Of a stretch of 64,000 bases of DNA, positions 2,944 to 64,000 are shown piece by piece (position 1 is the first letter of the stretch; every line of letters begins with the position of its first letter). The stretch is from IMG/VR virus record IMGVR_UViG_3300042691_053605, positions 78,918 to 142,917 of that record, one strand, 5' to 3'. The stretch is from a virus. The notes under the pieces are model-generated. The model saw only the letters and a list, made by a program, of their open reading frames with translations. It searched no databases and was not told the origin of the DNA. The translations under genes and the position numbers were made by a program.

Positions 2944-5454
2944 TTATTCTAAATCTACGTTTCCTAAATTTGCTTTAACTTCGTCGGTTGGCGGTGCGGT
3001 TAAATCTACAGATCCTTCGGAAGCCTTTGGTTTAATCGGTCCTGTTAGAGGAACTTCTACCGATGATATTTTTTCTGGCGCGGGAGGCGCAACCAATTTA
3101 ACTGGTGCTAACGGCTTTTTACTTGTTTCAGGGCTTTCAAAATTAACTTCACCTAATTTTGGGTTTGCTGGATTTGACGCCTCCAAATCAGTACGGCCAG
3201 GATCTTTATCACTTGGCTGATAACCGGCTAAAACAGTTTTTCCAGGCGTTACTGCTGCTGGGCCAGCTCCTTCAAGATTTGTAGATCCTGGTTTAGCCGA
3301 AGAAATTCCTGCACTTTGAAACTCGGTGGACCCAGGATTAATTGCAGATACTGAAGCTCCTGACAAGTTAACAACCATTGGTTTATCCGAAGAAACTGTT
3401 GGTTCTACCAATTCAACTTTTGTAGAACCTGACTGGCCAGGCGCTGCTCCTTCTAAATCTGAACTTCCAAGAGTTGCATCTTTCTTTGGCGCAGAATTCA
3501 AATCAACCGTAGTACCAGAGATATTACCTGGGTTTGCTCCGGTTAATTGAACACTAGTTGCAGAAGAATTTCCTGTTGGTGGAGCACTTAAATCAACCTT
3601 TGTACCTGATACTGATACCAAATTTGGTGCGGATAATTCTACACCAGAAAGAGCTCTTGGAGCAATTGCCGGTCCGGAGAGTTCAACAGCCGATGGGCTG
3701 CTAGGCGGAGTATTATCAGGACCAAAATCAACTTTAGAAGACGAAGCAGCGCCTACAGGAGGCGATTGCAAATTTACAGTGGAAGACTGCGCTGGAGATA
3801 CGGTAGGTCCACTCAATTGAACTTTTCCACCACCGCCTGACGGTGCAGCTGCACCTTCTAACTGAACTGCAGAAGAACTTGCCGCATTTATAGTAGGGGC
3901 GGACAGAGTAACTGGTGAAACATTTGATGAATTTTCTGGTGGAGCCTGAAGTTCTACGCTTGAAGATGAAGCGGAACCTATATTAGGACCACTTAATTCC
4001 GTATTTGTAGGACTTACCACAGAAGAAATTGCGCTCTGAACCGAGGTTAATTCAACTTGTGCAAGCGATTGAGTAAGTATTTCAGGCGCTTGTAAAACTA
4101 CTTGTTTTGCAATGTTTTGTGAAACCTTTGGCTCAAATGCGTTTGAAAATACTCTTCCAATAACCCGTGCTGCTAAATCGGCTGCTAAATTGTTTGCTGC
4201 GCCAACTGCTATATTTTCAGCCTGTTCTGCAAGTCTACCCAATAAGCTAGAATTTCTTTCATTTTCTGCTTTTAACAAATCCTGATGTTTTGTTTGATCA
4301 CGCAAATTGTTAAAAGAAGAATTCTTAATTCCTAAGAGATAACCAATTTCACTTGAAGGAATTCCTGCGTCATTTGCATCATTACCAGTCTTTTTCCAAA
4401 ACAGCGAATCCACTTTTGAATCATTTCTTTCTGACGCAGTTGGCGTATCTTGTAATATTGCTCCAAGAAGGCCATACGTATTTGATTCCCGGATAATCGG
4501 AGTTGTAATTGTAATTTTGTTGGTCGCCTCTTTTTCCGGAGTTTTTGCAATTGAGTCAAAATAACTCGGTGAATCCTCTTCTATTGAAAACTGACATCCT
4601 GAAAAAGAAAACACCATAAAAGTAGCCAATGAATCAAAATTTTGCATTAACGTAGGGAACGACGAAAACTTTCCAGGGTCTCTTTGTAAAGCATCGGTTA
4701 ATGTATTACTTAGAGCAGTTGTTGCCTGACTTGTTGGTAGCACCGCGTTAACTGCTGCCTGAATTCCTTGTTCAGCCAGCCCAGGTATGTTTATATTACC
4801 AAATAGACCAGTATCAAGAGGATTCTTATATGAATTCATCGACTGCGCAATATTTCGGTCATTCGTAGGAACCACTAGATCTGCAGGTCTTTGCATACTC
4901 CTAATTTCGGTAATTACAAGATCCATATCAAACCACCTTAAGTTTTCTGGCAAAATCCATCGCATATGAACAGAATCAAAGGTTGCCTTTCGGTATAAAT
5001 CCATCAAATATGTAATCTTTAAGTCAATGGATTCAAGGGTTTCAAATGAAAGCTTTTTATCTTTACCGCGAAAGCTATTTCCTGGAGCAATTTTCCAAAT
5101 TTCAGCAAGACCACTTACCTTTGTAAAAAACCAAGGAGTTTTTTCAGAAATATCTTTTAGCCCGGCAATAAATTCCCTAACCATCTGTGCTCGAGTGTAT
5201 TCGCCAATTCTTTTCAAATAACTAATAGCAGAATCAGGATGATCTTCAGAATATAAAAGTCCTCCTGGCCAGGTATCAAGACTTGGCTGTCCGGTAGGTA
5301 ATTCGTTAAACCCATAAAATTTTAGGTAGAACCCAATATATGTAGGATCTTCATAATCCGCAAATTTTGAAGGGCGCTGTGTTGCATACGCGGATCGCCA
5401 TGCTGGTGATGACTGCTCTAAAAATGACCGTGTAAGTGAATCAGCAAATTTCAT
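2944..5454 (-). CDS. putative tail/baseplate protein with a long Ser/Pro/Gly-rich repeat C-terminus
   Basis: 836 aa; globular N-terminal half; C-terminal ~370 aa of V(D/E/Q/N)Lx(A/G)P repeats; baseplate context. Confidence 0.55.
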   Translation of the reverse strand: MKFADSLTRSFLEQSSPAWRSAYATQRPSKFADYEDPTYIGFYLKFYGFNELPTGQPSLDTWPGGLLYSEDHPDSAISYLKRIGEYTRAQMVREFIAGLKDISEKTPWFFTKVSGLAEIWKIAPGNSFRGKDKKLSFETLESIDLKITYLMDLYRKATFDSVHMRWILPENLRWFDMDLVITEIRSMQRPADLVVPTNDRNIAQSMNSYKNPLDTGLFGNINIPGLAEQGIQAAVNAVLPTSQATTALSNTLTDALQRDPGKFSSFPTLMQNFDSLATFMVFSFSGCQFSIEEDSPSYFDSIAKTPEKEATNKITITTPIIRESNTYGLLGAILQDTPTASERNDSKVDSLFWKKTGNDANDAGIPSSEIGYLLGIKNSSFNNLRDQTKHQDLLKAENERNSSLLGRLAEQAENIAVGAANNLAADLAARVIGRVFSNAFEPKVSQNIAKQVVLQAPEILTQSLAQVELTSVQSAISSVVSPTNTELSGPNIGSASSSSVELQAPPENSSNVSPVTLSAPTINAASSSAVQLEGAAAPSGGGGKVQLSGPTVSPAQSSTVNLQSPPVGAASSSKVDFGPDNTPPSSPSAVELSGPAIAPRALSGVELSAPNLVSVSGTKVDLSAPPTGNSSATSVQLTGANPGNISGTTVDLNSAPKKDATLGSSDLEGAAPGQSGSTKVELVEPTVSSDKPMVVNLSGASVSAINPGSTEFQSAGISSAKPGSTNLEGAGPAAVTPGKTVLAGYQPSDKDPGRTDLEASNPANPKLGEVNFESPETSKKPLAPVKLVAPPAPEKISSVEVPLTGPIKPKASEGSVDLTAPPTDEVKANLGNVDLE

Positions 5455-9670: not shown

Positions 9671-9715
9671 CTATATATCAAAGGTTATCCCAAAATGATT
9701 CTCTTAGATATATAG
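9671..9715. promoter_or_regulatory. divergent pair of late promoters (minus 9671-9679; plus 9707-9715)
   Basis: CTATATATC and GATATATAG back to back between divergent genes. Confidence 0.7.
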
Positions 9716-43202: not shown

Positions 43203-43461
43203 TTTCTTTTATTTTTTGTGGTACTTTAAATGTGTGAACAGTATTGGTTGTGGCCACCTCTATCAGTGAAGGATTCGGCCATTGATTAAATCTCACATTT
43301 AAGATAGTGATCTTTTTAAGATCCGCGCAATAGGCTTTTACCAAATCCAGTGAAGCCTCCACTTCGTTCTGTTCAATAATTTCCTTAATTTTTGCCTTTT
43401 GAATTTTGTTAAGCATTTCGTACTTTGGTACGATGTCATTAACGGAATACGCTCTTGCCAT
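43195..43461 (-). CDS. hypothetical protein
   Basis: 88 aa, coupled to the sigma gene. Confidence 0.5.
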   Translation of the reverse strand: MARAYSVNDIVPKYEMLNKIQKAKIKEIIEQNEVEASLDLVKAYCADLKKITILNVRFNQWPNPSLIEVATTNTVHTFKVPQKIKEND

Positions 43462-44069
43462 TAGAATAGTTTATTTTGATTAGATAGTTTCTTTAAGAGT
43501 TCTTTGCCTTTTTTCAATTTATACCATACAATATTTATATCACAACCAATTTCCTGAGCAATCTCTTCATGAGAATACCCTTTGAAATACTTTAGTGAAA
43601 TCGCTTTTGAAATGTCTTCTGGTAGTTTTGCCACAAGCAGTCTTACAAGTTTTACCACCTGTTCACGATCAATGTTTTGCAAAATATCCGTATTGTCCGC
43701 TTCAAAAAATTGTGAGGAATCTGCGCCAACTCCGTACGGCTGTGTTTGCACAGTCTTTTTCTTCTTGGGAATGCAGTTAACATAGTTATGAAGACACGCA
43801 ATCATCCAAGTAAAAAACTTGGATTTTTCTGGATCATATTGACGAATCTTTACAAAGGAGTTTCCCATAACCGCCATTACAATATCCTCCAAGTCTTCTT
43901 CATCGGCTTGTGGAAGCCTGCGTTTTGCGGCAGTGTACAAGATAGGTTTGTACTTTTGGGCTAATTTGTTATAGGCTTTTTCATCGCCATCAATTGCTTC
44001 TAAAACCAAGGCCTTATCCTCTTCGTGGGTTAAGTATTTAACGGGCTTATAGCCTTTTCGGATCCTCAT
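43461..44069 (-). CDS. ECF-type RNA polymerase sigma factor
   Basis: Region 2 (GDEKAYNKL..KY...EDLEDIV...YDPEKSKFFTW) and region 4 (LPE....I.LKYFKGYSHEEIAQEIG). Confidence 0.9.
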   Translation of the reverse strand: MRIRKGYKPVKYLTHEEDKALVLEAIDGDEKAYNKLAQKYKPILYTAAKRRLPQADEEDLEDIVMAVMGNSFVKIRQYDPEKSKFFTWMIACLHNYVNCIPKKKKTVQTQPYGVGADSSQFFEADNTDILQNIDREQVVKLVRLLVAKLPEDISKAISLKYFKGYSHEEIAQEIGCDINIVWYKLKKGKELLKKLSNQNKLF

Positions 44070-44074
44070 ACAGT

Positions 44075-44100
44075 TTATATTCCGGAAGTTGAAAAAGTTT
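44075..44100 (-). promoter_or_regulatory. ECF-type promoter directly upstream of the sigma gene
   Basis: AAACTTTTTCAACTTCCG-GAATATAA. Confidence 0.7.
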
Positions 44101-45722
44101 TACTTACGGCTTTCGATAGAATCCCAAGTATCAATAATTGCTTTTGCAAATACCGGTTCACGGCCGGTCCAGCCTGCAAGAATTGCTCCGCGGTAAAGAT
44201 TTTCAGGAAGCACAGAATTGTTGTAACCAGCAACCTGTACAGTAAAGACATTAACTTTTGGATTAACCTTTTTACGATAGTCGCTCACCAACGCAAGTAC
44301 ATCAATATATGAACCGCGTTTCTTTGGGTGAATGTACTCATTGTATTCATAAGAATTTATACCGTAAAGGTTACCGTGACCGGCCTGCATATCTGAGTAG
44401 ATAAAGACGGTATCATAGTGCTTTTTATTTTTAATAGCGTCCTCCCAAAATAGCCAAATGCCGTTCTCAGTTCCGGCTCCTTGGTTTTGTCCGCGATTAG
44501 AAGTTTCCGCTAATTGCGTAAGTAAACCGTTTCTTTTTGAAACTGGCTCAAGAGAAAGACGATCTCCAAATACTCCTACATATCCTTCATCTGCCTGTTT
44601 GGCCGTAATGAGAGAGGAAAGATTTGCAATTTCTGCAACAGTAACAGTACCGTACTCGGAATTACAGGCGCCCCAAGCAGATCCACTGTTATCACTTAAG
44701 CATGCAACTTTTCCAGCCAACTTTGGCATATTTTCTACTGCGACATCCATACATACCTCGATAGCGTCAAGCACCATTTGTTTATTGTGGATATTCGCAG
44801 ACTTTACTGCTTTATATGCGCTCCAATAACGAAACGGAAACTGTTTGCCTGAAAGAACTGTGTGCTGCAATTGATCCAGAATCTTTTTAGCGGTTTCACG
44901 GTTTTCTACTTCAGTAAAAATACCTCGTAGGTTTCGCAAAAGAGCCATGTGAGGGATTCGGATTTGCTTAATAATTTCCTCCCAAGTTTTACCAGAAGAA
45001 CGAAGAGATTCCCAAGTCATTTCAGTACTTTCCACTTTTATTGTACCGGTTTTCATCAATTCGTTAATGTCCGTGCTGTTGGCATGTGACAGGCGAACCA
45101 GGTCAATTAAAGACTTTCCTTTGTACTTATTCAATTGGTAACGGCTATACTCCGCCAAACGCTCAGCCCATGTACGCTTTAATAAAGAAGGCAAGCCGTT
45201 TTTAGAACCGTTAACAAACATATAGTAATTCAATTGATTTGTCAAGTCATCTGGACGGCCTGCAATCGCTTTACCAATAGTTTTCATATAACCAGGATTT
45301 GCCTCGTTAAAAGCAACGCGGTTTTCATGCAAGGTTGCTCTTACATAAATAACGGCTGGATTCAAACGCATGTTATAGACTTCACGAAGTTCTTTTGCAA
45401 AATCCAAGGTTGCCTTAAAATCTGTGCTTAGCGCTGCATCAATTGACGCGGTAAAGATATCAACCGCGGTATCAGAGCCAAATGCCTCATTAAAAATATC
45501 GTACTCACGAGCAGATAAGTGCTTACTGATAGTTTTTTCCGTGCCTAGTCCATCACGGTAATACTGCGGCTCACCAAAAATGGAGGAGGCTGCTACAATT
45601 CGAAGAGTATCAAGTGGGTTAAGCGTGTAAGAAGTGCCACCCATGAAATTTTGCACCGAGGTTTCTGCTAACTTATTCAGTGTTGCAGTTTCTTTGTTAC
45701 CGTACTGTGTTAATCTGCTCAT
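44100..45722 (-). CDS. TROVE-domain Ro60-like RNA-binding protein with a vWA domain
   Basis: NFMGG.SY, YQL.KY, MALLRNLR, QFPFRY.SAY, DNSGS MIDAS and SDMQ. Confidence 0.9.
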   Translation of the reverse strand: MSRLTQYGNKETATLNKLAETSVQNFMGGTSYTLNPLDTLRIVAASSIFGEPQYYRDGLGTEKTISKHLSAREYDIFNEAFGSDTAVDIFTASIDAALSTDFKATLDFAKELREVYNMRLNPAVIYVRATLHENRVAFNEANPGYMKTIGKAIAGRPDDLTNQLNYYMFVNGSKNGLPSLLKRTWAERLAEYSRYQLNKYKGKSLIDLVRLSHANSTDINELMKTGTIKVESTEMTWESLRSSGKTWEEIIKQIRIPHMALLRNLRGIFTEVENRETAKKILDQLQHTVLSGKQFPFRYWSAYKAVKSANIHNKQMVLDAIEVCMDVAVENMPKLAGKVACLSDNSGSAWGACNSEYGTVTVAEIANLSSLITAKQADEGYVGVFGDRLSLEPVSKRNGLLTQLAETSNRGQNQGAGTENGIWLFWEDAIKNKKHYDTVFIYSDMQAGHGNLYGINSYEYNEYIHPKKRGSYIDVLALVSDYRKKVNPKVNVFTVQVAGYNNSVLPENLYRGAILAGWTGREPVFAKAIIDTWDSIESRK

Positions 45723-45746
45723 ATATGTATGTTTTAATTGTTTCTA

Positions 45747-45786
45747 AAAAAGAAAACCCCGCCAAGTTGTTTACTGGCGGGGTTTC
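45747..45786 (-). terminator. intrinsic terminator between the Y-like RNAs and the TROVE gene
   Basis: GAAACCCCGCCA...TGGCGGGGTTTTC followed by a U-tract on the minus strand. Confidence 0.75.
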
Positions 45787-45825
45787 AGAATAGCAAGGTT
45801 TACCAAGTAAACCTTTAATGTCTTT

Positions 45826-45897
45826 CCGAGAATATTGAAGTTGCGTGTGTTTTGTTCGAAATAGTTGAATTAGAAGTAACGCATCTTCCCGCTTCGG
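45826..45897 (-). ncRNA. Y RNA-like (Yrl-type) RNA 1, about 72 nt
   Basis: CCGAAGCGGGAAGAUGCGUUACUUC...ACGCAACUUCAAUAUUCUCGG; 5' and 3' ends pair; upstream of the Ro60 gene. Confidence 0.65.
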
Positions 45898-45910
45898 TCA
45901 GTATATAAAG

Positions 45911-46133
45911 TCCTTATTTCCTGAGAATAATCTGATGAGTGATTGACGGTTACGCCGCCGAATCGTCCCCGAATTTCTAGTCAAGAGGATAAAACCGGGC
46001 TACTTGTTGAACGCCTTCTATCGAAGGTGCCGGCTTTCTGTAGCAGTACTTGGCCTGTGTTAGATTCAGCCTCGGCTGAATCCGTTGAATTATAGTCTTG
46101 AAGTAACCCATTACAGCCGCTTCAGGATAAGGA
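45911..46133 (-). ncRNA. Y RNA-like (Yrl-type) RNA 2, about 220 nt
   Basis: Same GAAGCGG..GUUACUUC...AUUCUC scaffold; closing stem UCCUUAUCCUGA/UCAGGAAAUAAGGA; internal hairpins. Confidence 0.65.
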
Positions 46134-46176
46134 TTAGAAATTTAAGAACGTTTTGTAATTTTTTGAATTACAGATT

Positions 46177-46202
46177 CTATATTCACCAGGATTAATTAGT
46201 TT
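46177..46202 (-). promoter_or_regulatory. ECF-type promoter upstream of the Y-like RNAs
   Basis: AAACTAATTAATCCTGGT-GAATATAG. Confidence 0.6.
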
Positions 46203-46233
46203 CGGTGGTTGTTAACTTTTTTTTATTTTGCAC

Positions 46234-46259
46234 AAAAAAAGACACCGTAGTGTCTTTTT
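46234..46259. terminator. intrinsic terminator
   Basis: AAAAAGACAC-cgta-GTGTCTTTTT. Confidence 0.8.
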
Positions 46260-46272
46260 CAAATAAGGTTTA

Positions 46273-53670: not shown

Positions 53671-54075
53671 TTATCCTTTTTCACCGTAGAAGTAATTAAC
53701 TGTAGCAGTATTACTCTGGTCAAGGTTATTTAAGGTTACTTTTACAGAAGCTCCATCAGCAAGCAATGGGAACCATGCAAAATCTCCGGGAATTAATTTC
53801 ATTGCCGTAGAATTGAAAGAACCAGAGTCTTGAATGCTAACTGTAATGCCTGCAGCAGGATTTGTAGAAGGAGACTGTAAGTAAACGTAAACTACGTTGC
53901 TGCTGCCTACCGCTGCTGCTGGATCGTAAATGATTGCGGAATCGTCTGCTTCCACTACTACAGTGGAAAACGCCGCGTCAAGCGCTACAGTTTCGGTCAC
54001 AGGCAGCGTGAAATTCACGGGCGTTGGGAACAAAGTAGTTGTAGCTAACTTGATAGTTGATGTAATTGTTGCCAT
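53671..54075 (-). CDS. putative virion protein, paralog family member
   Basis: MATITSTIKL..LFPTPVNF...PGDFAWFP...YFYGEKG; late promoter at 54110-54118. Confidence 0.6.
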   Translation of the reverse strand: MATITSTIKLATTTLFPTPVNFTLPVTETVALDAAFSTVVVEADDSAIIYDPAAAVGSSNVVYVYLQSPSTNPAAGITVSIQDSGSFNSTAMKLIPGDFAWFPLLADGASVKVTLNNLDQSNTATVNYFYGEKG

Positions 54076-54109: not shown

Positions 54110-54550
54110 CTATATATCCAATTCTATGTGATTATTACGGCCACTTATCCATTCTCTTTCCGCAATAATCATGGCTTCTGCCGGAGTAAGTCCCGGAACT
54201 TCCGCCTGTGTATACAAAGCAGTATACACTATGTTTACTTCCAGGTCGTGGCGTCTTGAATTACGTAAAACATCCCGAATGGTTCGTAATTCCCAAGATC
54301 TGGATAACGGTTCATATGTAACTTCCATAGGTCCGATGGTTTCACAGAGTGTCACTAGATCCCTTTCGGCATCTTGTATTAGGTTATACATTTCGGGTTC
54401 TACTGTTAACTGCAATGGGCTTCTAAATGATTCACTTTCTGTAGAATACCGTGCAAGCGGCGAACATAGGGTGCCAACGTTCAATCGGTTAACCCATTGA
54501 AAAAAGAGGTCAAACTCATCTTTCTCAATATAAATTACTACCTTGATCAT
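54110..54550 (-). CDS. hypothetical protein
   Basis: 146-aa ORF. Confidence 0.55.
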   Translation of the reverse strand: MIKVVIYIEKDEFDLFFQWVNRLNVGTLCSPLARYSTESESFRSPLQLTVEPEMYNLIQDAERDLVTLCETIGPMEVTYEPLSRSWELRTIRDVLRNSRRHDLEVNIVYTALYTQAEVPGLTPAEAMIIAEREWISGRNNHIELDI

Positions 54551-54575
54551 ATGTATGTTTTTTTATCTATCTCAG

Positions 54576-54584
54576 GATATATAG
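54576..54584 (+). promoter_or_regulatory. late promoter GATATATAG pointing into a non-coding region
   Basis: Exact motif on the plus strand with no substantial ORF downstream. Confidence 0.65.
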
Positions 54585-54589
54585 TATGT

Positions 54590-54871
54590 AGGTCAGGGTT
54601 TCTGTAACCAGGAGTGAAGGAGCAAATTGCACCATCTTCTATTAGGGACTTGAAGAATGAGCAATTTCAGGCTTCAGCCAACGGTTGACAGACTTTCCCA
54701 ATGATCGATAACTGAAAATGTAAGGTGCTGATTGGAGAATCCCAGTCACCCGAAGATTTTTGAAGAACTCAATGGTCTAAAAGGAAGCTTAAACACTCAA
54801 AGGCAGAAAAACACACATTGTAGTCCTCTAGGGATTCTCAAAAGAAAAGGAGCTCAAAGGCTCCTTTCTTT
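54590..54871 (+). ncRNA. candidate structured ncRNA of unknown family
   Basis: Bounded by a promoter and a terminator; several nested helices; no sizeable ORF. Confidence 0.6.
54840..54871. terminator. bidirectional intrinsic terminator
   Basis: AAAGAAAAGGAGC-tcaaag-GCTCCTTTCTTT. Confidence 0.75.
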
Positions 54872-54889
54872 ATGCTGAATGTTTGTTAT

Positions 54890-55429
54890 TTATTTTTTCC
54901 TAAATACTGCTAACGTATTATCATTTTTTCCAAAGGAATTGTATTCCTCTATAAGCTCTATTTCCTGATTTTTTAATAAACTATGATATCTTGGTCGATA
55001 CCAAAAATCATGCATAATTAAAATACCACCAGACTTTAGCGAATGCATGGAAGAAACTGCAGAATTTACTCTATCTCTGCCATCTACCAAAATTACATCG
55101 AATTGATCAGCGTCTAAATTCTTAATAAATTTTAGATAGTTTTCAAATTGTCCTGGCTGTGCTGGCTGAAATGTATGCGTTTGTGGAAAGTTAGGAGAAA
55201 TTAAATGTATTTTCCATTTGCATTTTGCCTTGTAATTTAATTCTTTTGCAATTTGCTCGGACCATTTTTTGTCGTGCTCTATCGAAACAATACTATTAAC
55301 AATTTTTGAAAAATATAGAGTGCTGCTTCCACATCCTATTTCTAAAAGATTAGTATCTCTGCTAATATATGTCGTTAAATGACATATTTCCTCGTAATTC
55401 ATATAAGGAAGATTCTTAATATCTGGCAT
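54890..55429 (-). CDS. class I SAM-dependent methyltransferase
   Basis: LLEIGCGSST, SIEHD and FDVILVDG; likely start MPDIKN at 55429. Confidence 0.8.
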   Translation of the reverse strand: MPDIKNLPYMNYEEICHLTTYISRDTNLLEIGCGSSTLYFSKIVNSIVSIEHDKKWSEQIAKELNYKAKCKWKIHLISPNFPQTHTFQPAQPGQFENYLKFIKNLDADQFDVILVDGRDRVNSAVSSMHSLKSGGILIMHDFWYRPRYHSLLKNQEIELIEEYNSFGKNDNTLAVFRKK

Positions 55430-55433
55430 ATAA

Positions 55434-56117
55434 TTATTTGGTTTGGGCTCCACGAGAGTAGAACCAATCCTTTCCGTAAGTAATGGAAAGTTCTTCTCCA
55501 GGTTCAATATCGCGTTTTGCATAGAAAACAATTGACTTCTTGGAAGGATCTACTTCATAGGTAACGTTTGGCTGGTTATTGTGATTATAGATTGATCCGT
55601 AACCAAAAACAACAGCGCAGCGCTCGTCGTCAATTGTAAAGAGATAATCACAGATTGGTTCAACCTGTAAAAGATCCATTGGAACCGTAACATACGGAGC
55701 CTCCTCAATAACCTCTTTAGATTTTAGAGGATGCAGAGCAAAAACTCCACGGCCACCGTTAATTGATTTGCCAACTCCAATTTTATGCCAGTTCTTAGCA
55801 GAAACCGAACGCGAAAGAAGAGTACCAGGCTCGCGAATGTATTCGGGTTCTACCTCTTTTCCTTGCTTAAGAGCATCCGGTTTTTCTGCCTCGTTGGCTT
55901 CTTCGCGAGTTTTCTTGGCAATAAGTTCGCGCAGCCCAGAAAGAAAATCTTCCGATTTGGCTTTCATGTAGAGCTCCAAATCATTGGCGGCGGGTTTGCC
56001 ACATGTTTCCAACTCCTGGTTTAATTGAGCAATCATTTCTGGAGTCGGGAAATAATTAAAAGTCTTAATGATTTCTTCCAGACGATTTGCTACTATGTAT
56101 TTATTGTATGCTATCAC
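55434..56117 (-). CDS. SET-domain protein lysine methyltransferase
   Basis: GRGVFA, YNHNNQPN and DIEPGEELSITYG; late promoter at 56140-56148. Confidence 0.88.
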   Translation of the reverse strand: MIAYNKYIVANRLEEIIKTFNYFPTPEMIAQLNQELETCGKPAANDLELYMKAKSEDFLSGLRELIAKKTREEANEAEKPDALKQGKEVEPEYIREPGTLLSRSVSAKNWHKIGVGKSINGGRGVFALHPLKSKEVIEEAPYVTVPMDLLQVEPICDYLFTIDDERCAVVFGYGSIYNHNNQPNVTYEVDPSKKSIVFYAKRDIEPGEELSITYGKDWFYSRGAQTK

Positions 56118-56171
56118 AGTATTGAAATGTTTTTCTAAACTATATATCCATTGGTGTCTTGGAGTGAGGAC

Positions 56172-56222: not shown

Positions 56223-58145
56223 TTACGCGATGTTGATTGGCAAAGTACCGCTGTTCCAGTTTGCACCAGTAGTTGTATCAGTGAAAGTGTTAACTACGAA
56301 AGTCAAGTACTGAGTTTCTGGGTGGAAACCAGCTTCAACCAAAGCATAGCGAGATTTAACCGCGATCTTTGGAGCCATTGTACCTTCAGCAATAGTCTGG
56401 ATAGACTCAGCCATCAAGTAAGGCATGAATTTCAAACCTGGCTCTTCGTCAGCTCCTTTACGTCCTACGCAAACACGAGTGTCATTGTAATTCATATTAG
56501 GATCAACATAGATAGTCAAACCAGCAAGAGTACCGATTGGGTAAAGAGCACCGTTGTTTTGGTTGATTGTGTTAGCCAATGGATAGAAAGTAAACTGTGC
56601 AGAATCTTGCAATGCAGTAGCAATTTGCAAGTTAGTTACCGCAAAGTTTGCAGGACCACGACGGCCACGTTGAGCTACCATGTTAGCAGCAGCCAATACT
56701 TTAGATTGGATACGACGTTGAATAGTTCCTTGGTTTTCAAAAGCAGAAGTTGTACCACCGTAAATTGGGAAAGTGCTAATTGGAATAGACAATGTTGAAT
56801 ATATTCCAGATGCAGGAGCAGTTTCTTCATTACCCAATCCTAATGCAGCGGTTACAGCAGGTGAAGTCGCAGGATCCAACTGTACGTTGAAGTTAGTTCC
56901 CTCTACATTGTTAACGTTGTAGTGGTTCTGCCATCCCAATGCAAATGCACGGAACAAGATGTGCTTATTGATTGACTGAGAAATGTCGTTAACCAACGCA
57001 TTTTCCATCATAGAAAGAACATCGATACCGTATTGACGGTTCAAATCTTGGATTTGCTCAGTAGTTACAGTAGCAGCAACTTGGAAAGTTTCAGCTTCTA
57101 CAAACTTAGTGAATGCCTGCATTCCCATAGTTCTGTACTGAGTAGTTTCACCAACACCACGACGCATTGGCTCATAAGCAGACAAAGCATTTACAGAGTT
57201 TCCGCTGAAAGCTGCATTGTCATTTGGACCTGAACCAGCAAAACCTTGTACGTGATCTTCTAGAGCACGTACCAATTCAACAACACCGTCTACATCACCA
57301 GCAGCAGAACCACCAGTTAATGAAAGTGTACCAGTTGTCCAAGTGTTTCCAGCTAAAGTAGCAGAAGCAGCTGTGTAAATAGCAGAATCAGCGCCTGCAA
57401 CAATTACGTCAGCAAAAGTTATACCTTGTGTAGCGTTTGAAGGTATATTGGAATAGTCAACTACACCAGCAGTTACTGCAGATACATCAGCAGATTCACC
57501 AACTACACGGAAAATCAATCCGCCATCGATACGAGATTTACCAACCCATGCAACAAGAAGTCCTTTTACGTCGGTGTCTACAGCGTCAGCAGTAAATACG
57601 TAGTATGTACCAATAGCAGATGCAGCAACTGCATTGTAAATTGCAGTCGTAACAGAATTACGAGCAACTTTGAACACCAAGAATTTGTCAGTGAAATTAG
57701 CATTGTTAGTCAATGGGTTACCTTGACCTGCAATACCAGGGGCGTTTACATCACGGCCACCAGCATATACATAATCCAAATAGGTCAATACTCCTGAAGG
57801 ACCGTTCATTGGGATAACAGGAACGATATCAAAACCAACAGTTCTTGCAGCAACTTGAATTGCCAATGGAAGAAGTGAAGGGAATTTATCGCCAGATCCT
57901 TGAGAACCAGCACCATAGAAGTTCAACGCGCCACCAGCAACTGTAGATGCAGGAGCAACGTTACCCATACCTGGGGTGTTAAGAAGAGATGCCTGTGGGT
58001 AGGTGAATCCTTCGTTTAGAGAGTGATAGTGAGCATACTTACTCATCCATCCCAATTTTGCATTGTCAGAAATTCCGGTTTGCGATTCGATAATCGGTGA
58101 CCAGGTCTCTAACACTTGCGCTTCATTAATAAGCTTACCGTTCAT
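56223..58145 (-). CDS. major capsid protein (T4 gp23-like)
   Basis: VPVIPMNGPSG, TTEQIQDL, RRGPANF, MPYLMAE and KSRYAL. Confidence 0.93.
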   Translation of the reverse strand: MNGKLINEAQVLETWSPIIESQTGISDNAKLGWMSKYAHYHSLNEGFTYPQASLLNTPGMGNVAPASTVAGGALNFYGAGSQGSGDKFPSLLPLAIQVAARTVGFDIVPVIPMNGPSGVLTYLDYVYAGGRDVNAPGIAGQGNPLTNNANFTDKFLVFKVARNSVTTAIYNAVAASAIGTYYVFTADAVDTDVKGLLVAWVGKSRIDGGLIFRVVGESADVSAVTAGVVDYSNIPSNATQGITFADVIVAGADSAIYTAASATLAGNTWTTGTLSLTGGSAAGDVDGVVELVRALEDHVQGFAGSGPNDNAAFSGNSVNALSAYEPMRRGVGETTQYRTMGMQAFTKFVEAETFQVAATVTTEQIQDLNRQYGIDVLSMMENALVNDISQSINKHILFRAFALGWQNHYNVNNVEGTNFNVQLDPATSPAVTAALGLGNEETAPASGIYSTLSIPISTFPIYGGTTSAFENQGTIQRRIQSKVLAAANMVAQRGRRGPANFAVTNLQIATALQDSAQFTFYPLANTINQNNGALYPIGTLAGLTIYVDPNMNYNDTRVCVGRKGADEEPGLKFMPYLMAESIQTIAEGTMAPKIAVKSRYALVEAGFHPETQYLTFVVNTFTDTTTGANWNSGTLPINIA

Positions 58146-58174: not shown

Positions 58175-60070
58175 TTATCGTTTGTTGTAACGATTTAGAC
58201 CTTGTTTTACACTTTCGATGTAAGCAGCATTATAGCCTAATACTGGTGTTTTCTCATCAATTGTATTTTCTGGTGTAGCGGATTCGTTAACTACTCCTAC
58301 CTCAGGTACGAATGTAGCGCCCAAACCACGGGTTTGCCAGAAATTTTTGACTTGGTAGTCAGTCTCTAAACGATAGACTTTTGATTGACGAATAATACGG
58401 TCTTTTGTCTCAGCAGAAGCGTTTTCCCATAAAGGAAGGAATTCCGCAGGAATATCAGACAACCATTTTTCATTAACCTCAGTCTTTGCAAGAGCATTTT
58501 CCCAAACTGAGCAAACTCCAGCCTCATCATATGCAGGCTTAGCATTCCAAGCATTTGTGACCCTCATCTTATCGGCCTCGCTCAAAGCAGAAAAAGCATT
58601 TACTTTTTCTTCACTTAAGAACTTTACAAATGGATAAGTTTTGTCCAAAGAAGTTGATTCCATTCTCTGTTTTTCAATGGATTCAAGGACATTTTTGATT
58701 TTTTCATTCAAGTTAGAGTAGCGTGACATAATACCACGGCTCTCTGTAACAGCACCATTAAGGATGCCTTTTTCTGATTTGTTCTTTTCTTCTTCTTCCT
58801 CTTCAACCTCGTTCAAATCATTGTTGCGGCCTTTAACGCCACCATTGATCCCTTCAGCAATGTACTCAGCGTACTCAGTAAGTGCTTTAAGATCTTCTTT
58901 AGTAGCAGAATTTTCCGCCAAATATTCTGAGTAACGAATAGAGTTATCAGCGTGCTCAGCAATATGCTCAGCGTAACCGATAGTCTTTGTTAATTTCTCA
59001 GCAAGGTATTCAGCGTAACCAAGACCTTGGTTTTGCTTTTCAGCCAAATAGTTAGTGAACTCAATAGTCTGACCAAGTTTTTCAGAAATGCTTTCAGCAT
59101 ATTGAATTCCTTTGTCAGTTCTTTCAGCGATATGCTCTGCGTAAGCAATACCAGCGTCAGCCTTTTCAGCAACGTGTTCAGCGTATTCAATTCCTTGGTT
59201 TACTTTCTCAGCCAAGTAATTTGAATAACCTAAAGCCTTATTTTGTTCTTCAGCAAGGTAAGAAGCGTATTGCTTCAAATTATTTACCTCTTCTTGAAGA
59301 GCCAATATCTTTGCCTCTTTGTCTTCTGACTCAGAGATTTTTTCCAAACGACCATTGATTCTTTCAATTTCTTCTTTGATAATTAAAGAATACTTGTTCA
59401 TGTCGTCAATTGTAACAAATTCCTGCATTTTTTCTGGTGTTTTTTCAGTATTTGGATTATTTATCTCCTCTGAATCCATGCTTTCTAAAAAAGCCTTAGA
59501 AGTCTTATCGGACATATCATAGATAGCAAGAGTATCATCATCGTTGTACCCAAGGCTTTCGTTAATACGCTTCATTTGCGCGTTTTCAAAACCAGGATCA
59601 GCAACCAAATCGTAAGTGAAGATTCTCTTAATCTGTACTTTTTTGTTTTCTCCAACAACACCAGCCGCGCGAGATGAAATACTAATAGGAACTCCGCTGT
59701 CTACCAAGTTCTTGGCAATTTGGCCAGAAGGAGTATCAAGCAATTTGATCTTTCCTACGATTTGACGCTTTTTAGAATCATAACGGATATCCTCAATAAG
59801 GTGAGATACCTTATTCAAAGAGATATCAAATTTCTCAGGATGATCCAATTCTCCAAGAAGACGCTTTTCTTCAATCTTCTTTTTCAAATAGTCCAAGTGA
59901 GGAAGGTATTCCTTTTCTTCGTATATGCGGTGGTTGTTATTCTCAACTCCAAACTGAGCGAAGATACCCTCGAGTACATAATCATCATTCGTACGAGAAA
60001 CGCTTAGGTTTTCGCCAGAACGCTCGAGAATCATTACAAATTGTTTATTGCTCATCAATTCTGTTTTCAT
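58175..60070 (-). CDS. prohead core protease (gp21-like) fused to a scaffold-like repeat region
   Basis: LEGIF..ENNNHRIY, LGELDHP, VSH, ISSRAAG and YDLVADPGF; YAEYLAEK repeats; late promoter at 60076-60084. Confidence 0.9.
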   Translation of the reverse strand: MKTELMSNKQFVMILERSGENLSVSRTNDDYVLEGIFAQFGVENNNHRIYEEKEYLPHLDYLKKKIEEKRLLGELDHPEKFDISLNKVSHLIEDIRYDSKKRQIVGKIKLLDTPSGQIAKNLVDSGVPISISSRAAGVVGENKKVQIKRIFTYDLVADPGFENAQMKRINESLGYNDDDTLAIYDMSDKTSKAFLESMDSEEINNPNTEKTPEKMQEFVTIDDMNKYSLIIKEEIERINGRLEKISESEDKEAKILALQEEVNNLKQYASYLAEEQNKALGYSNYLAEKVNQGIEYAEHVAEKADAGIAYAEHIAERTDKGIQYAESISEKLGQTIEFTNYLAEKQNQGLGYAEYLAEKLTKTIGYAEHIAEHADNSIRYSEYLAENSATKEDLKALTEYAEYIAEGINGGVKGRNNDLNEVEEEEEEKNKSEKGILNGAVTESRGIMSRYSNLNEKIKNVLESIEKQRMESTSLDKTYPFVKFLSEEKVNAFSALSEADKMRVTNAWNAKPAYDEAGVCSVWENALAKTEVNEKWLSDIPAEFLPLWENASAETKDRIIRQSKVYRLETDYQVKNFWQTRGLGATFVPEVGVVNESATPENTIDEKTPVLGYNAAYIESVKQGLNRYNKR

Positions 60071-63931: not shown

Positions 63932-64000
63932 TACCCCGTGTAGGACTCGAACCTACACCCGAAGACTAGATCCTAAGTCTAGCGCGTCTACCAATTCCGC
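63932..64000 (-). tRNA. tRNA-Leu(TAG), 5' end cut off by the window edge
   Basis: D arm GCGGAATTGGTAGACGC; anticodon arm CTAGA-CTTAGGA-TCTAG; T arm GTAGG-TTCGAGT-CCTAC; CCA not encoded. Confidence 0.9.

Follow-up and report, generated by a model that had tools for sequence, protein, structure and literature searches.

The window analysed here is the last 64 kb of an IMG/VR record of 142,917 bp, which is judged to be about 50% complete and belongs to a T4-like phage. Between two open reading frames (ORFs) on the minus strand of this window lies a gap of 339 nt (54551-54889). To judge from the sequence, the stretch from 54576 to 54875 on the plus strand is a promoter-to-terminator unit that lacks a protein-coding frame and is antisense to the surrounding genes of the head module, that is, a candidate gene for a folded non-coding RNA (ncRNA) of about 285 nt, counted from the presumed transcription start to the terminator. 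The features of this locus, and one more distant gene that is relevant to its interpretation, are the following.

44100-45722, minus strand: TROVE/Ro60 gene, 540 aa (Pfam E 3.5e-13)
54110-54550, minus strand: gene for a 146-aa protein, one flank of the gap and the sole constant neighbour of the RNA
54576-54584, plus strand: late-type promoter motif GATATATAG, followed by ATG-TAG
54846-54875, plus strand: intrinsic terminator, made up of a hairpin (54846-54867, from a terminator scan) and a T-tract
54890-55531, minus strand: gene with a methyltransferase domain, 213 aa, the other flank of the gap
55434-56117, minus strand: SET-domain gene
56223-58145, minus strand: gp23-type major capsid gene
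58175-60070, minus strand: gp21-type prohead protease gene

The window contains the motif GATATATAG 12 times, where 0.38 occurrences would be expected, and in 100 shuffled sequences the count never gets so high. Ten of the 12 sites are located 15-35 nt upstream of an ATG, including those before the protease and SET genes. Because the motif is both enriched and placed before start codons, we regard it as a real promoter-type signal, and we term it 'late' by analogy with the T4 late promoter, TATAAATA, and on account of its position ahead of structural genes. On the plus strand there are just two copies, one of them at 54576. As the original prediction described, this one is an exact late motif that is followed by no sizeable ORF and, further on, by a terminator. 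Transcription would begin a few bases downstream of the motif, near 54590, and the RNA is presumably expressed late, from a promoter motif that it has in common with the head genes. The terminator probably also ends the convergent methyltransferase gene on the minus strand. At 54110-54118, on the minus strand, there is another copy of GATATATAG, which shares bases with the stop codon of the 146-aa gene and stands ahead of the gene that follows (53671-54075). The 146-aa gene is thus enclosed by the terminator on one side and this promoter on the other. Elsewhere in the window, at 9671-9715, two GATATATAG motifs stand back to back, 27 nt apart and in opposite orientations, each with an ATG about 17-19 nt downstream. 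This arrangement looks like a divergent late promoter pair, and thus the phage would use two separate motifs for divergent transcription.

We gathered homologous loci by way of the 146-aa protein, the capsid protein and conserved DNA patterns. The RNA region is present in at least ten loci (nine of them distinct), all from metagenomic T4-like phages, namely the window and the loci L002, L139, L136, L137, L138, L141, L257, L122 and L144. Each of the ten copies is antisense to a homologue of the 146-aa gene and immediately upstream of it. The SET gene precedes the RNA region and is separated from it by zero to two small genes that vary. The promoter core, ATATATAG, is invariant in all aligned copies, and all ten have retained the terminator stem together with the T-tract on the plus strand. 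No ORF is common to the homologues, in which frames, starts and lengths all differ, and the lengths of alignment gaps, as read by eye, are not multiples of three. Mean pairwise nucleotide identity is 70% for the RNA, compared with 64% for the adjacent coding gene, and it is the RNA that is more conserved in 31 of 36 pairs. Invariant or nearly invariant blocks are GGAGTGAAGG, CTTCAGCC, CCAATGATCGA, GARTCCCAG, ACTCAATGRTCTAA, AAGCTYAA, ACATTG and GGATTC.

Broader searches yielded little beyond these loci. With blastn, a collection of GenBank phages gave no match to the RNA, and a 14-mer scan of IMG/VR returned 119 chance matches and otherwise only a known relative. A metagenome scan with a gapped pattern gained at least one member, L257, among the matches listed, and a tighter pattern found no new member in IMG/VR and 185,579 prokaryote genomes.

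The RNA is also patchily distributed among related phages. In loci L140, L143, L146, L312 and L313 the SET gene abuts the 146-aa gene without a gap. The two covariance models that we built (R1 and R2, see below) detected no RNA copy in related loci without the gap, and R2 detected none in four related virus records of 136-429 kb, whose capsid protein is 44-71% identical; in the window's own record it found just the one copy. When the 146-aa proteins are arranged in a tree, RNA-less loci appear in at least three places, and one of them (P0015, at locus L313) adjoins the RNA-bearing L257 in a well-supported group of three members. Homology between L257 and L313 begins only about 15-25 nt before the ATG, and the DNA further upstream is unrelated. 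The scattered RNA-less loci and the break between L257 and L313 therefore point to a recombination-prone slot, whose content was lost or replaced several times. The RNA is an accessory function, and it is dispensable, since it was lost in at least three lineages and is absent from several close relatives.

The RNA does not correspond to a known family. At gathering thresholds, Rfam 15 finds only a tRNA in the whole window, a truncated one at 63932-64000 on the minus strand, and no family at the RNA. When the RNA region was searched at E-values up to 10, the best match scored 22.4 bits against a cut-off of 51.4. The original prediction saw no tRNA or tmRNA signature in the RNA, and ARAGORN agrees in that it reports neither kind of gene in the window. 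In L139, a tRNA gene (3233-3306, plus strand, 70.9 bits) is located about 2.5 kb downstream of the RNA locus. Five homologous loci gave only sub-threshold matches to SraG (RF00082) in Rfam 15. These matches recur over the 3′ end of the RNA in four copies, with 18.6-30.7 bits against a gathering score of 50; in the window copy the alignment consists of an A-rich run and the terminator hairpin, and the opposite strand matches too. Since the scores are far below gathering, the match covers the terminator region and both strands are hit, we consider the likeness to SraG to be a terminator artefact and not homology.

The predicted free energy of the single sequence is unremarkable (z = -1.37 for the plus strand and -1.18 for the minus strand, no better than shuffles), and it is therefore the comparison with relatives that makes the case for structure. 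We built the two covariance models from MAFFT alignments, reading helices from the window copy and realigning all copies. The 5′ domain (model R1, alignment A6) is predicted to form one long hairpin that comprises five helices.

54591-54706, plus strand: 5′ domain, one long hairpin, P1-P5
54591-54598 with 54697-54706, plus strand: P1
54601-54609 with 54683-54692, plus strand: P2, TCTGTAACC/GGTTGACAGA
54611-54619 with 54672-54679, plus strand: P3, TGAAG/CTTCA
54624-54630 with 54661-54667, plus strand: P4, AAATTGC/GCAATTT
54634-54639 with 54652-54658, plus strand: P5, TCTTC/GAAGA
54640-54651, plus strand: hairpin loop
54698-54708, plus strand: conserved block CCAATGATCGA, at the end of the 5′ domain

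As controls, we slid the 3′ partners by 1-3 columns. In the 5′ domain, 79.6% of the alignment cells form standard pairs (31-49% in the slid controls), 15 of 36 pairs have changed on both sides (4-10 in the controls) and the covariation score is 0.30 (0.07-0.12 in the controls), figures that come from alignments fitted to the proposed structure, with nine distinct sequences, modest statistics and no formal significance test. The numbers nonetheless show a real covariation signal. P4 is the strongest helix, with all seven pairs covarying, and it reads AAAUUGC/GCAAUUU in the window, AGUCUGC/GCGGACU in L139 and CGAC/GUCG in L257. In P1, read by eye, GGG/CCC is replaced by GGAA/UUCC in L136 and by GGAAA/UUUCC in L122. 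The remaining four helices, P2-P5, had been proposed in the original prediction; all four are found where they were placed and are kept in relatives, and there are compensatory changes in P4, P2 and P5, but no covariation in P3. P2 is 61% paired and still poorly aligned, and its bulge positions differ between copies.

The block CCAATGATCGA is conserved in eight of ten copies, while it has diverged in L122 and is deleted in L144. In the window copy its core, CAATGATC, recurs with one mismatch at 54770-54777. This recurrence lies within a second block (54768-54781), seen as CCAATGATCGATAA and CTCAATGRTCTAA, which also reads as a two-codon mini-ORF, ATG-RTC-TAA, and this may be a coincidence. Two further resemblances in the 5′ domain, a sarcin-ricin-like P5 loop and an SRP-like 5′ end, were rejected by eye, as the positions concerned vary or are deleted in relatives.

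The proposed elements of the 3′ domain are these.

54724-54839, plus strand: 3′ domain
54724-54730 with 54743-54750, plus strand: hairpin Px, GGTGCTG with CAGTCACC; its loop carries the near-invariant GAGAATCC
54735-54742 with 54832-54839, plus strand: P6, GAGAATCC with GGATTCTC (in RNA letters GAGAAUCC/GGAUUCUC)
54762-54766 with 54824-54828, plus strand: P7, GAAGA with TCCTC
54770-54774 with 54816-54820, plus strand: P8, CAATG with CATTG, invariant
within the P7/P8 arm: a loop of 41 nt with the blocks RTCTAA, AAAGCTYAAA and CTCAAGGCA

In this domain, 92.6% of cells pair, as compared with 32-48% in slid controls. P7 covaries, with pair 51/113 being AU in four copies and UA in four, and pair 47/117 being GC in six and AU in three. 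The outer pairs of Px covary as well, for example GGUG/CACC versus UUUAUG/CGUAAA in L002 (read by eye), and pair 8/30 is UA in five copies, CG in three and UG in two. P6 has 92.5% of its cells paired; five of its eight pairs never vary, two copies change A-U to G-U, and GGATTC in its 3′ strand is invariant in all copies. P6 (GAGAATCCC/GGGATTCTC in the original prediction) and P8 (CAATG/CATTG) are thus present as had been proposed, but covariation neither supports nor refutes them, because they are invariant or nearly so. Two other proposed pairings fared worse: CCAAT/ATTGG is not kept in relatives, according to alignments read by eye, and the long-range pairing of the loop TAGGGACT with AGTCCTCTA is not supported, since the 3′ positions covary with P7 instead and L122 lacks the loop.

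P6 and Px share a segment, which is the loop of Px and the 5′ strand of P6, and a pseudoknot is the only way for both helices to exist at once. Such a pseudoknot looks geometrically feasible, the loop strand being preceded by 4 nt and followed by none; failing that, P6 and Px would be alternative folds. When Px is not imposed, RNAalifold picks P6 together with P7 and P8.

The locus thus has the properties that are generally asked of a stand-alone ncRNA gene, i.e. a promoter, a terminator, no conserved ORF, conservation above that of the coding neighbour and covarying helices. The main proposal of the original prediction, a new structured ncRNA that is located near the capsid genes and has a late-type promoter and a terminator to itself, stands up well, given ten loci, the invariant ATATATAG, the covarying helices and the lack of a match in Rfam 15.

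As a kind of thing, a stand-alone phage ncRNA is not unprecedented. ROOL and GOLLD are orphan structured ncRNAs of phages and prophages that were found by comparative genomics (PMC12286853), and a catalogue based on IMG/VR lists over 8,000 candidate structured RNAs (csRNAs) of 29-151 nt, each required to occur in at least three IMG/VR regions (PMC10690425). Like these, our RNA is stand-alone, phage-borne, non-coding and mostly metagenomic, and has a conserved, covarying fold. At about 285 nt, however, it is much shorter than ROOL and GOLLD and longer than any csRNA of the catalogue, with which it was compared by length range. It also differs from orphan phage ncRNAs in its location, which is in a head-gene module behind a late-type promoter and not beside tRNA genes. 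Among possible roles, the original prediction suggested that of a packaging or assembly RNA, next to a sponge or a ribozyme. The prohead (packaging) RNA of phi29 is likewise a phage RNA of a few hundred nucleotides that is linked by position to head genes. However, there is no homology between the two, we saw no conserved pair of complementary loops that could serve in ring formation, and our RNA is absent from close relatives that share the same head genes. To our knowledge, T4-type packaging motors do not use RNA, and we know of no well-studied T4-type phage that carries a large structured RNA in its head-gene module. Both the family itself and the presence of a large structured RNA, preceded by a late-type promoter, among T4-type head genes appear to be new, the comparison with the csRNA catalogue being one of size range.

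What, then, might the RNA do? The best overall explanation, to which we assign a probability of roughly 0.6, is a stand-alone gene for a structured ncRNA, of a family so far seen only in some metagenomic T4-like phages, with a late protein-binding role as the less certain part. Outside the covarying helices there are long invariant stretches, which suit an RNA that a partner recognises better than one that has a simple antisense action, and such a conservation pattern would be expected of a protein-recognised RNA or of a specific tertiary core, not of a simple antisense transcript. As for the protein-binding role, which we hold tentatively and with less than even confidence, the RNA may be a stable scaffold or decoy that binds protein and works in trans late in infection. 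The invariant 3′ domain could then be the surface that the partner protein recognises, and the 5′ hairpin, variable in sequence while remaining base-paired, could be a structural handle. No candidate for the partner protein emerged from the analysis. The constant neighbour of the RNA, the 146-aa protein, has no match in Pfam and PHROG, and its fold is predicted with confidence (AlphaFold, pLDDT 87) but is not a recognisable one, with nothing found by Foldseek in PDB and BFVD. A function in base pairing with other transcripts is not supported. In the 143-kb record, which is a half-genome, there are 131 ten-mers complementary to the RNA, compared with 97 (maximum 150) for shuffled RNA, so complementary ten-mers are no commoner than for shuffled RNA. 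None of them involves the invariant blocks, and the record holds no extended complementarity to other transcripts.

The constant position of the RNA could instead mean that it is a cis-acting element that throttles or times expression of the 146-aa gene by antisense action or transcription interference. The late promoter would fire head-on into read-through from an upstream late promoter at 56140, a two-way terminator would add to the effect, and the fold of the RNA would mainly serve its stability. The RNA always abuts the 146-aa gene, whose ATG is 25 nt from the RNA promoter and is oriented away from it. This gene also has no late motif of its own, the next one (54110) being located only at its 3′ end, and in relatives without the RNA it directly follows the SET gene, with which it is presumably co-transcribed. 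However, such an element needs no conserved fold, yet compensatory changes keep the helices. The RNA also has long invariant blocks and is conserved more strongly than the coding DNA alongside, and it shares no position with the coding part of the 146-aa gene. We therefore consider this mechanism unlikely.

Another question is whether the conserved fold belongs to the opposite strand, as a long structured 5′ leader of the 146-aa gene that is riboswitch-like or protein-binding. Structured leaders upstream of genes are common, this one would run in the same direction as all neighbouring genes, and the helices can form on either strand. The RNAalifold energy of the 3′ domain is even slightly lower on the minus strand (-27.4 versus -20.8), a value that does not clearly separate the strands. 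On the other hand, RNAalifold prefers the plus strand when given the 5′ domain or the alignment as a whole, and the paired cells include 38 G-U or U-G combinations versus 17 A-C or C-A, when the reverse would be expected for an RNA made from the minus strand. The plus-strand T-tract is found in all copies, whereas that of the minus strand is missing in L122 and weaker in L138. Moreover, the invariant late motif is oriented against the direction of such a leader, and on the minus strand no late or ECF-type promoter motif separates the terminator from the leader that the 146-aa gene would have. Finally, RNA-less relatives presumably express the 146-aa gene without any leader. The functional strand is thus very probably the plus strand, and a minus-strand leader is distinctly unlikely.

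The ECF-type motif just mentioned, AAC-N14-GAATATA, has seven exact sites on the minus strand of the window, between 12595 and 56823. It stands directly before an ECF-like sigma gene (43461-44069) and before a non-coding region upstream of the TROVE gene (46178-46201). If one mismatch is tolerated, the count rises to 15 sites, where 8 would be expected. Within or next to the RNA region there is none with up to one mismatch on either strand, and so none ahead of the 146-aa gene.

The TROVE gene itself raises the idea that the RNA is associated with Ro60, as a third Y-like RNA or as an RNA dedicated to the phage TROVE protein, which it would serve as substrate or decoy. Binding of structured RNAs is a property of Ro60 proteins (PMC4201824), the host phage encodes such a protein within the window, and the L002 phage carries both the RNA and TROVE, 4 kb apart. 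Like the Y RNAs of the YrlA and YrlB types, our RNA is a structured small RNA that ends in a terminator and whose phage encodes Ro60/TROVE. YrlA-type Y RNAs, however, are recognised by a size of 80-130 nt, a conserved GNCGAAN0-1G motif close to the 5′ end, a tRNA-like module and a position no more than about 4 kb from the Ro60 gene, on the same strand (PMC4201824). Our RNA is about 285 nt long, is located 8.9 kb from the TROVE gene on the opposite strand and has nothing tRNA-like. Its copies contain no conserved instance of the motif; the only CGAA in the window copy, seen by eye, is in CCCGAAG (54749-54755), in a variable linker and without the leading G. Furthermore, TROVE genes also occur in relatives without the RNA (G001, G002 and L146; the TROVE match of L313 is only faint). 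As the presence of the RNA does not track that of TROVE, an obligate link between RNA and Ro60 is disfavoured, and the window holds a better Y-RNA candidate in a separate non-coding stretch upstream of the TROVE gene. We therefore give an association with Ro60 very little weight.

That stretch (45723-46272, 550 nt) is located directly upstream of the TROVE gene, has a terminator at its end and is homologous to L146:4078-4521; taken together, TROVE gene and stretch cover 44100-46272 on the minus strand of the window, with L146:4078-6140 as their counterpart. It contains two related modules of the form GAAGCGG ... GTTACTTC ... ATTCTC, and Rfam gives no match to it. Within the stretch, CUUGACUAG resembles what we take to be the 3′ strand of the Ro-binding helix in metazoan Y RNAs. 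These modules are candidate phage Y RNAs.

A ribozyme or a ligand-binding RNA, with the invariant junctions and the possible 3′ pseudoknot as its catalytic or binding core, would typically show invariant unpaired blocks framed by covarying helices along with a pseudoknot candidate, as is seen here, but Rfam 15 gives no match to a self-cleaving ribozyme or riboswitch at E-values up to 10, there is no downstream gene to regulate and no processing site can be deduced, so that we consider this very improbable.

An RNA of this size (about 285 nt) that is conserved, follows a late-type promoter and has covarying helices as well as a 3′ domain that hardly varies points to as yet undescribed biology of late infection. 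There is an outside chance that a new late-phase ribonucleoprotein of T4-like phages is built around the RNA, or that the RNA is catalytic. If so, the RNA might have a role in, for example, head assembly or maturation, given its place beside the protease, capsid and SET genes, or alternatively be a decoy that disarms an RNA-directed defence of the host, and the invariant pseudoknotted 3′ domain would be an RNA module without a known counterpart. Even if its function should be mundane, such as that of a local antisense regulator, the RNA would still be a new family fit for Rfam. It is a compact and well-bounded target, for which the close relatives without the RNA are natural controls. Since these phages also encode Ro60 and candidate Y RNAs of their own, they seem to be unusually rich in RNA-based functions.
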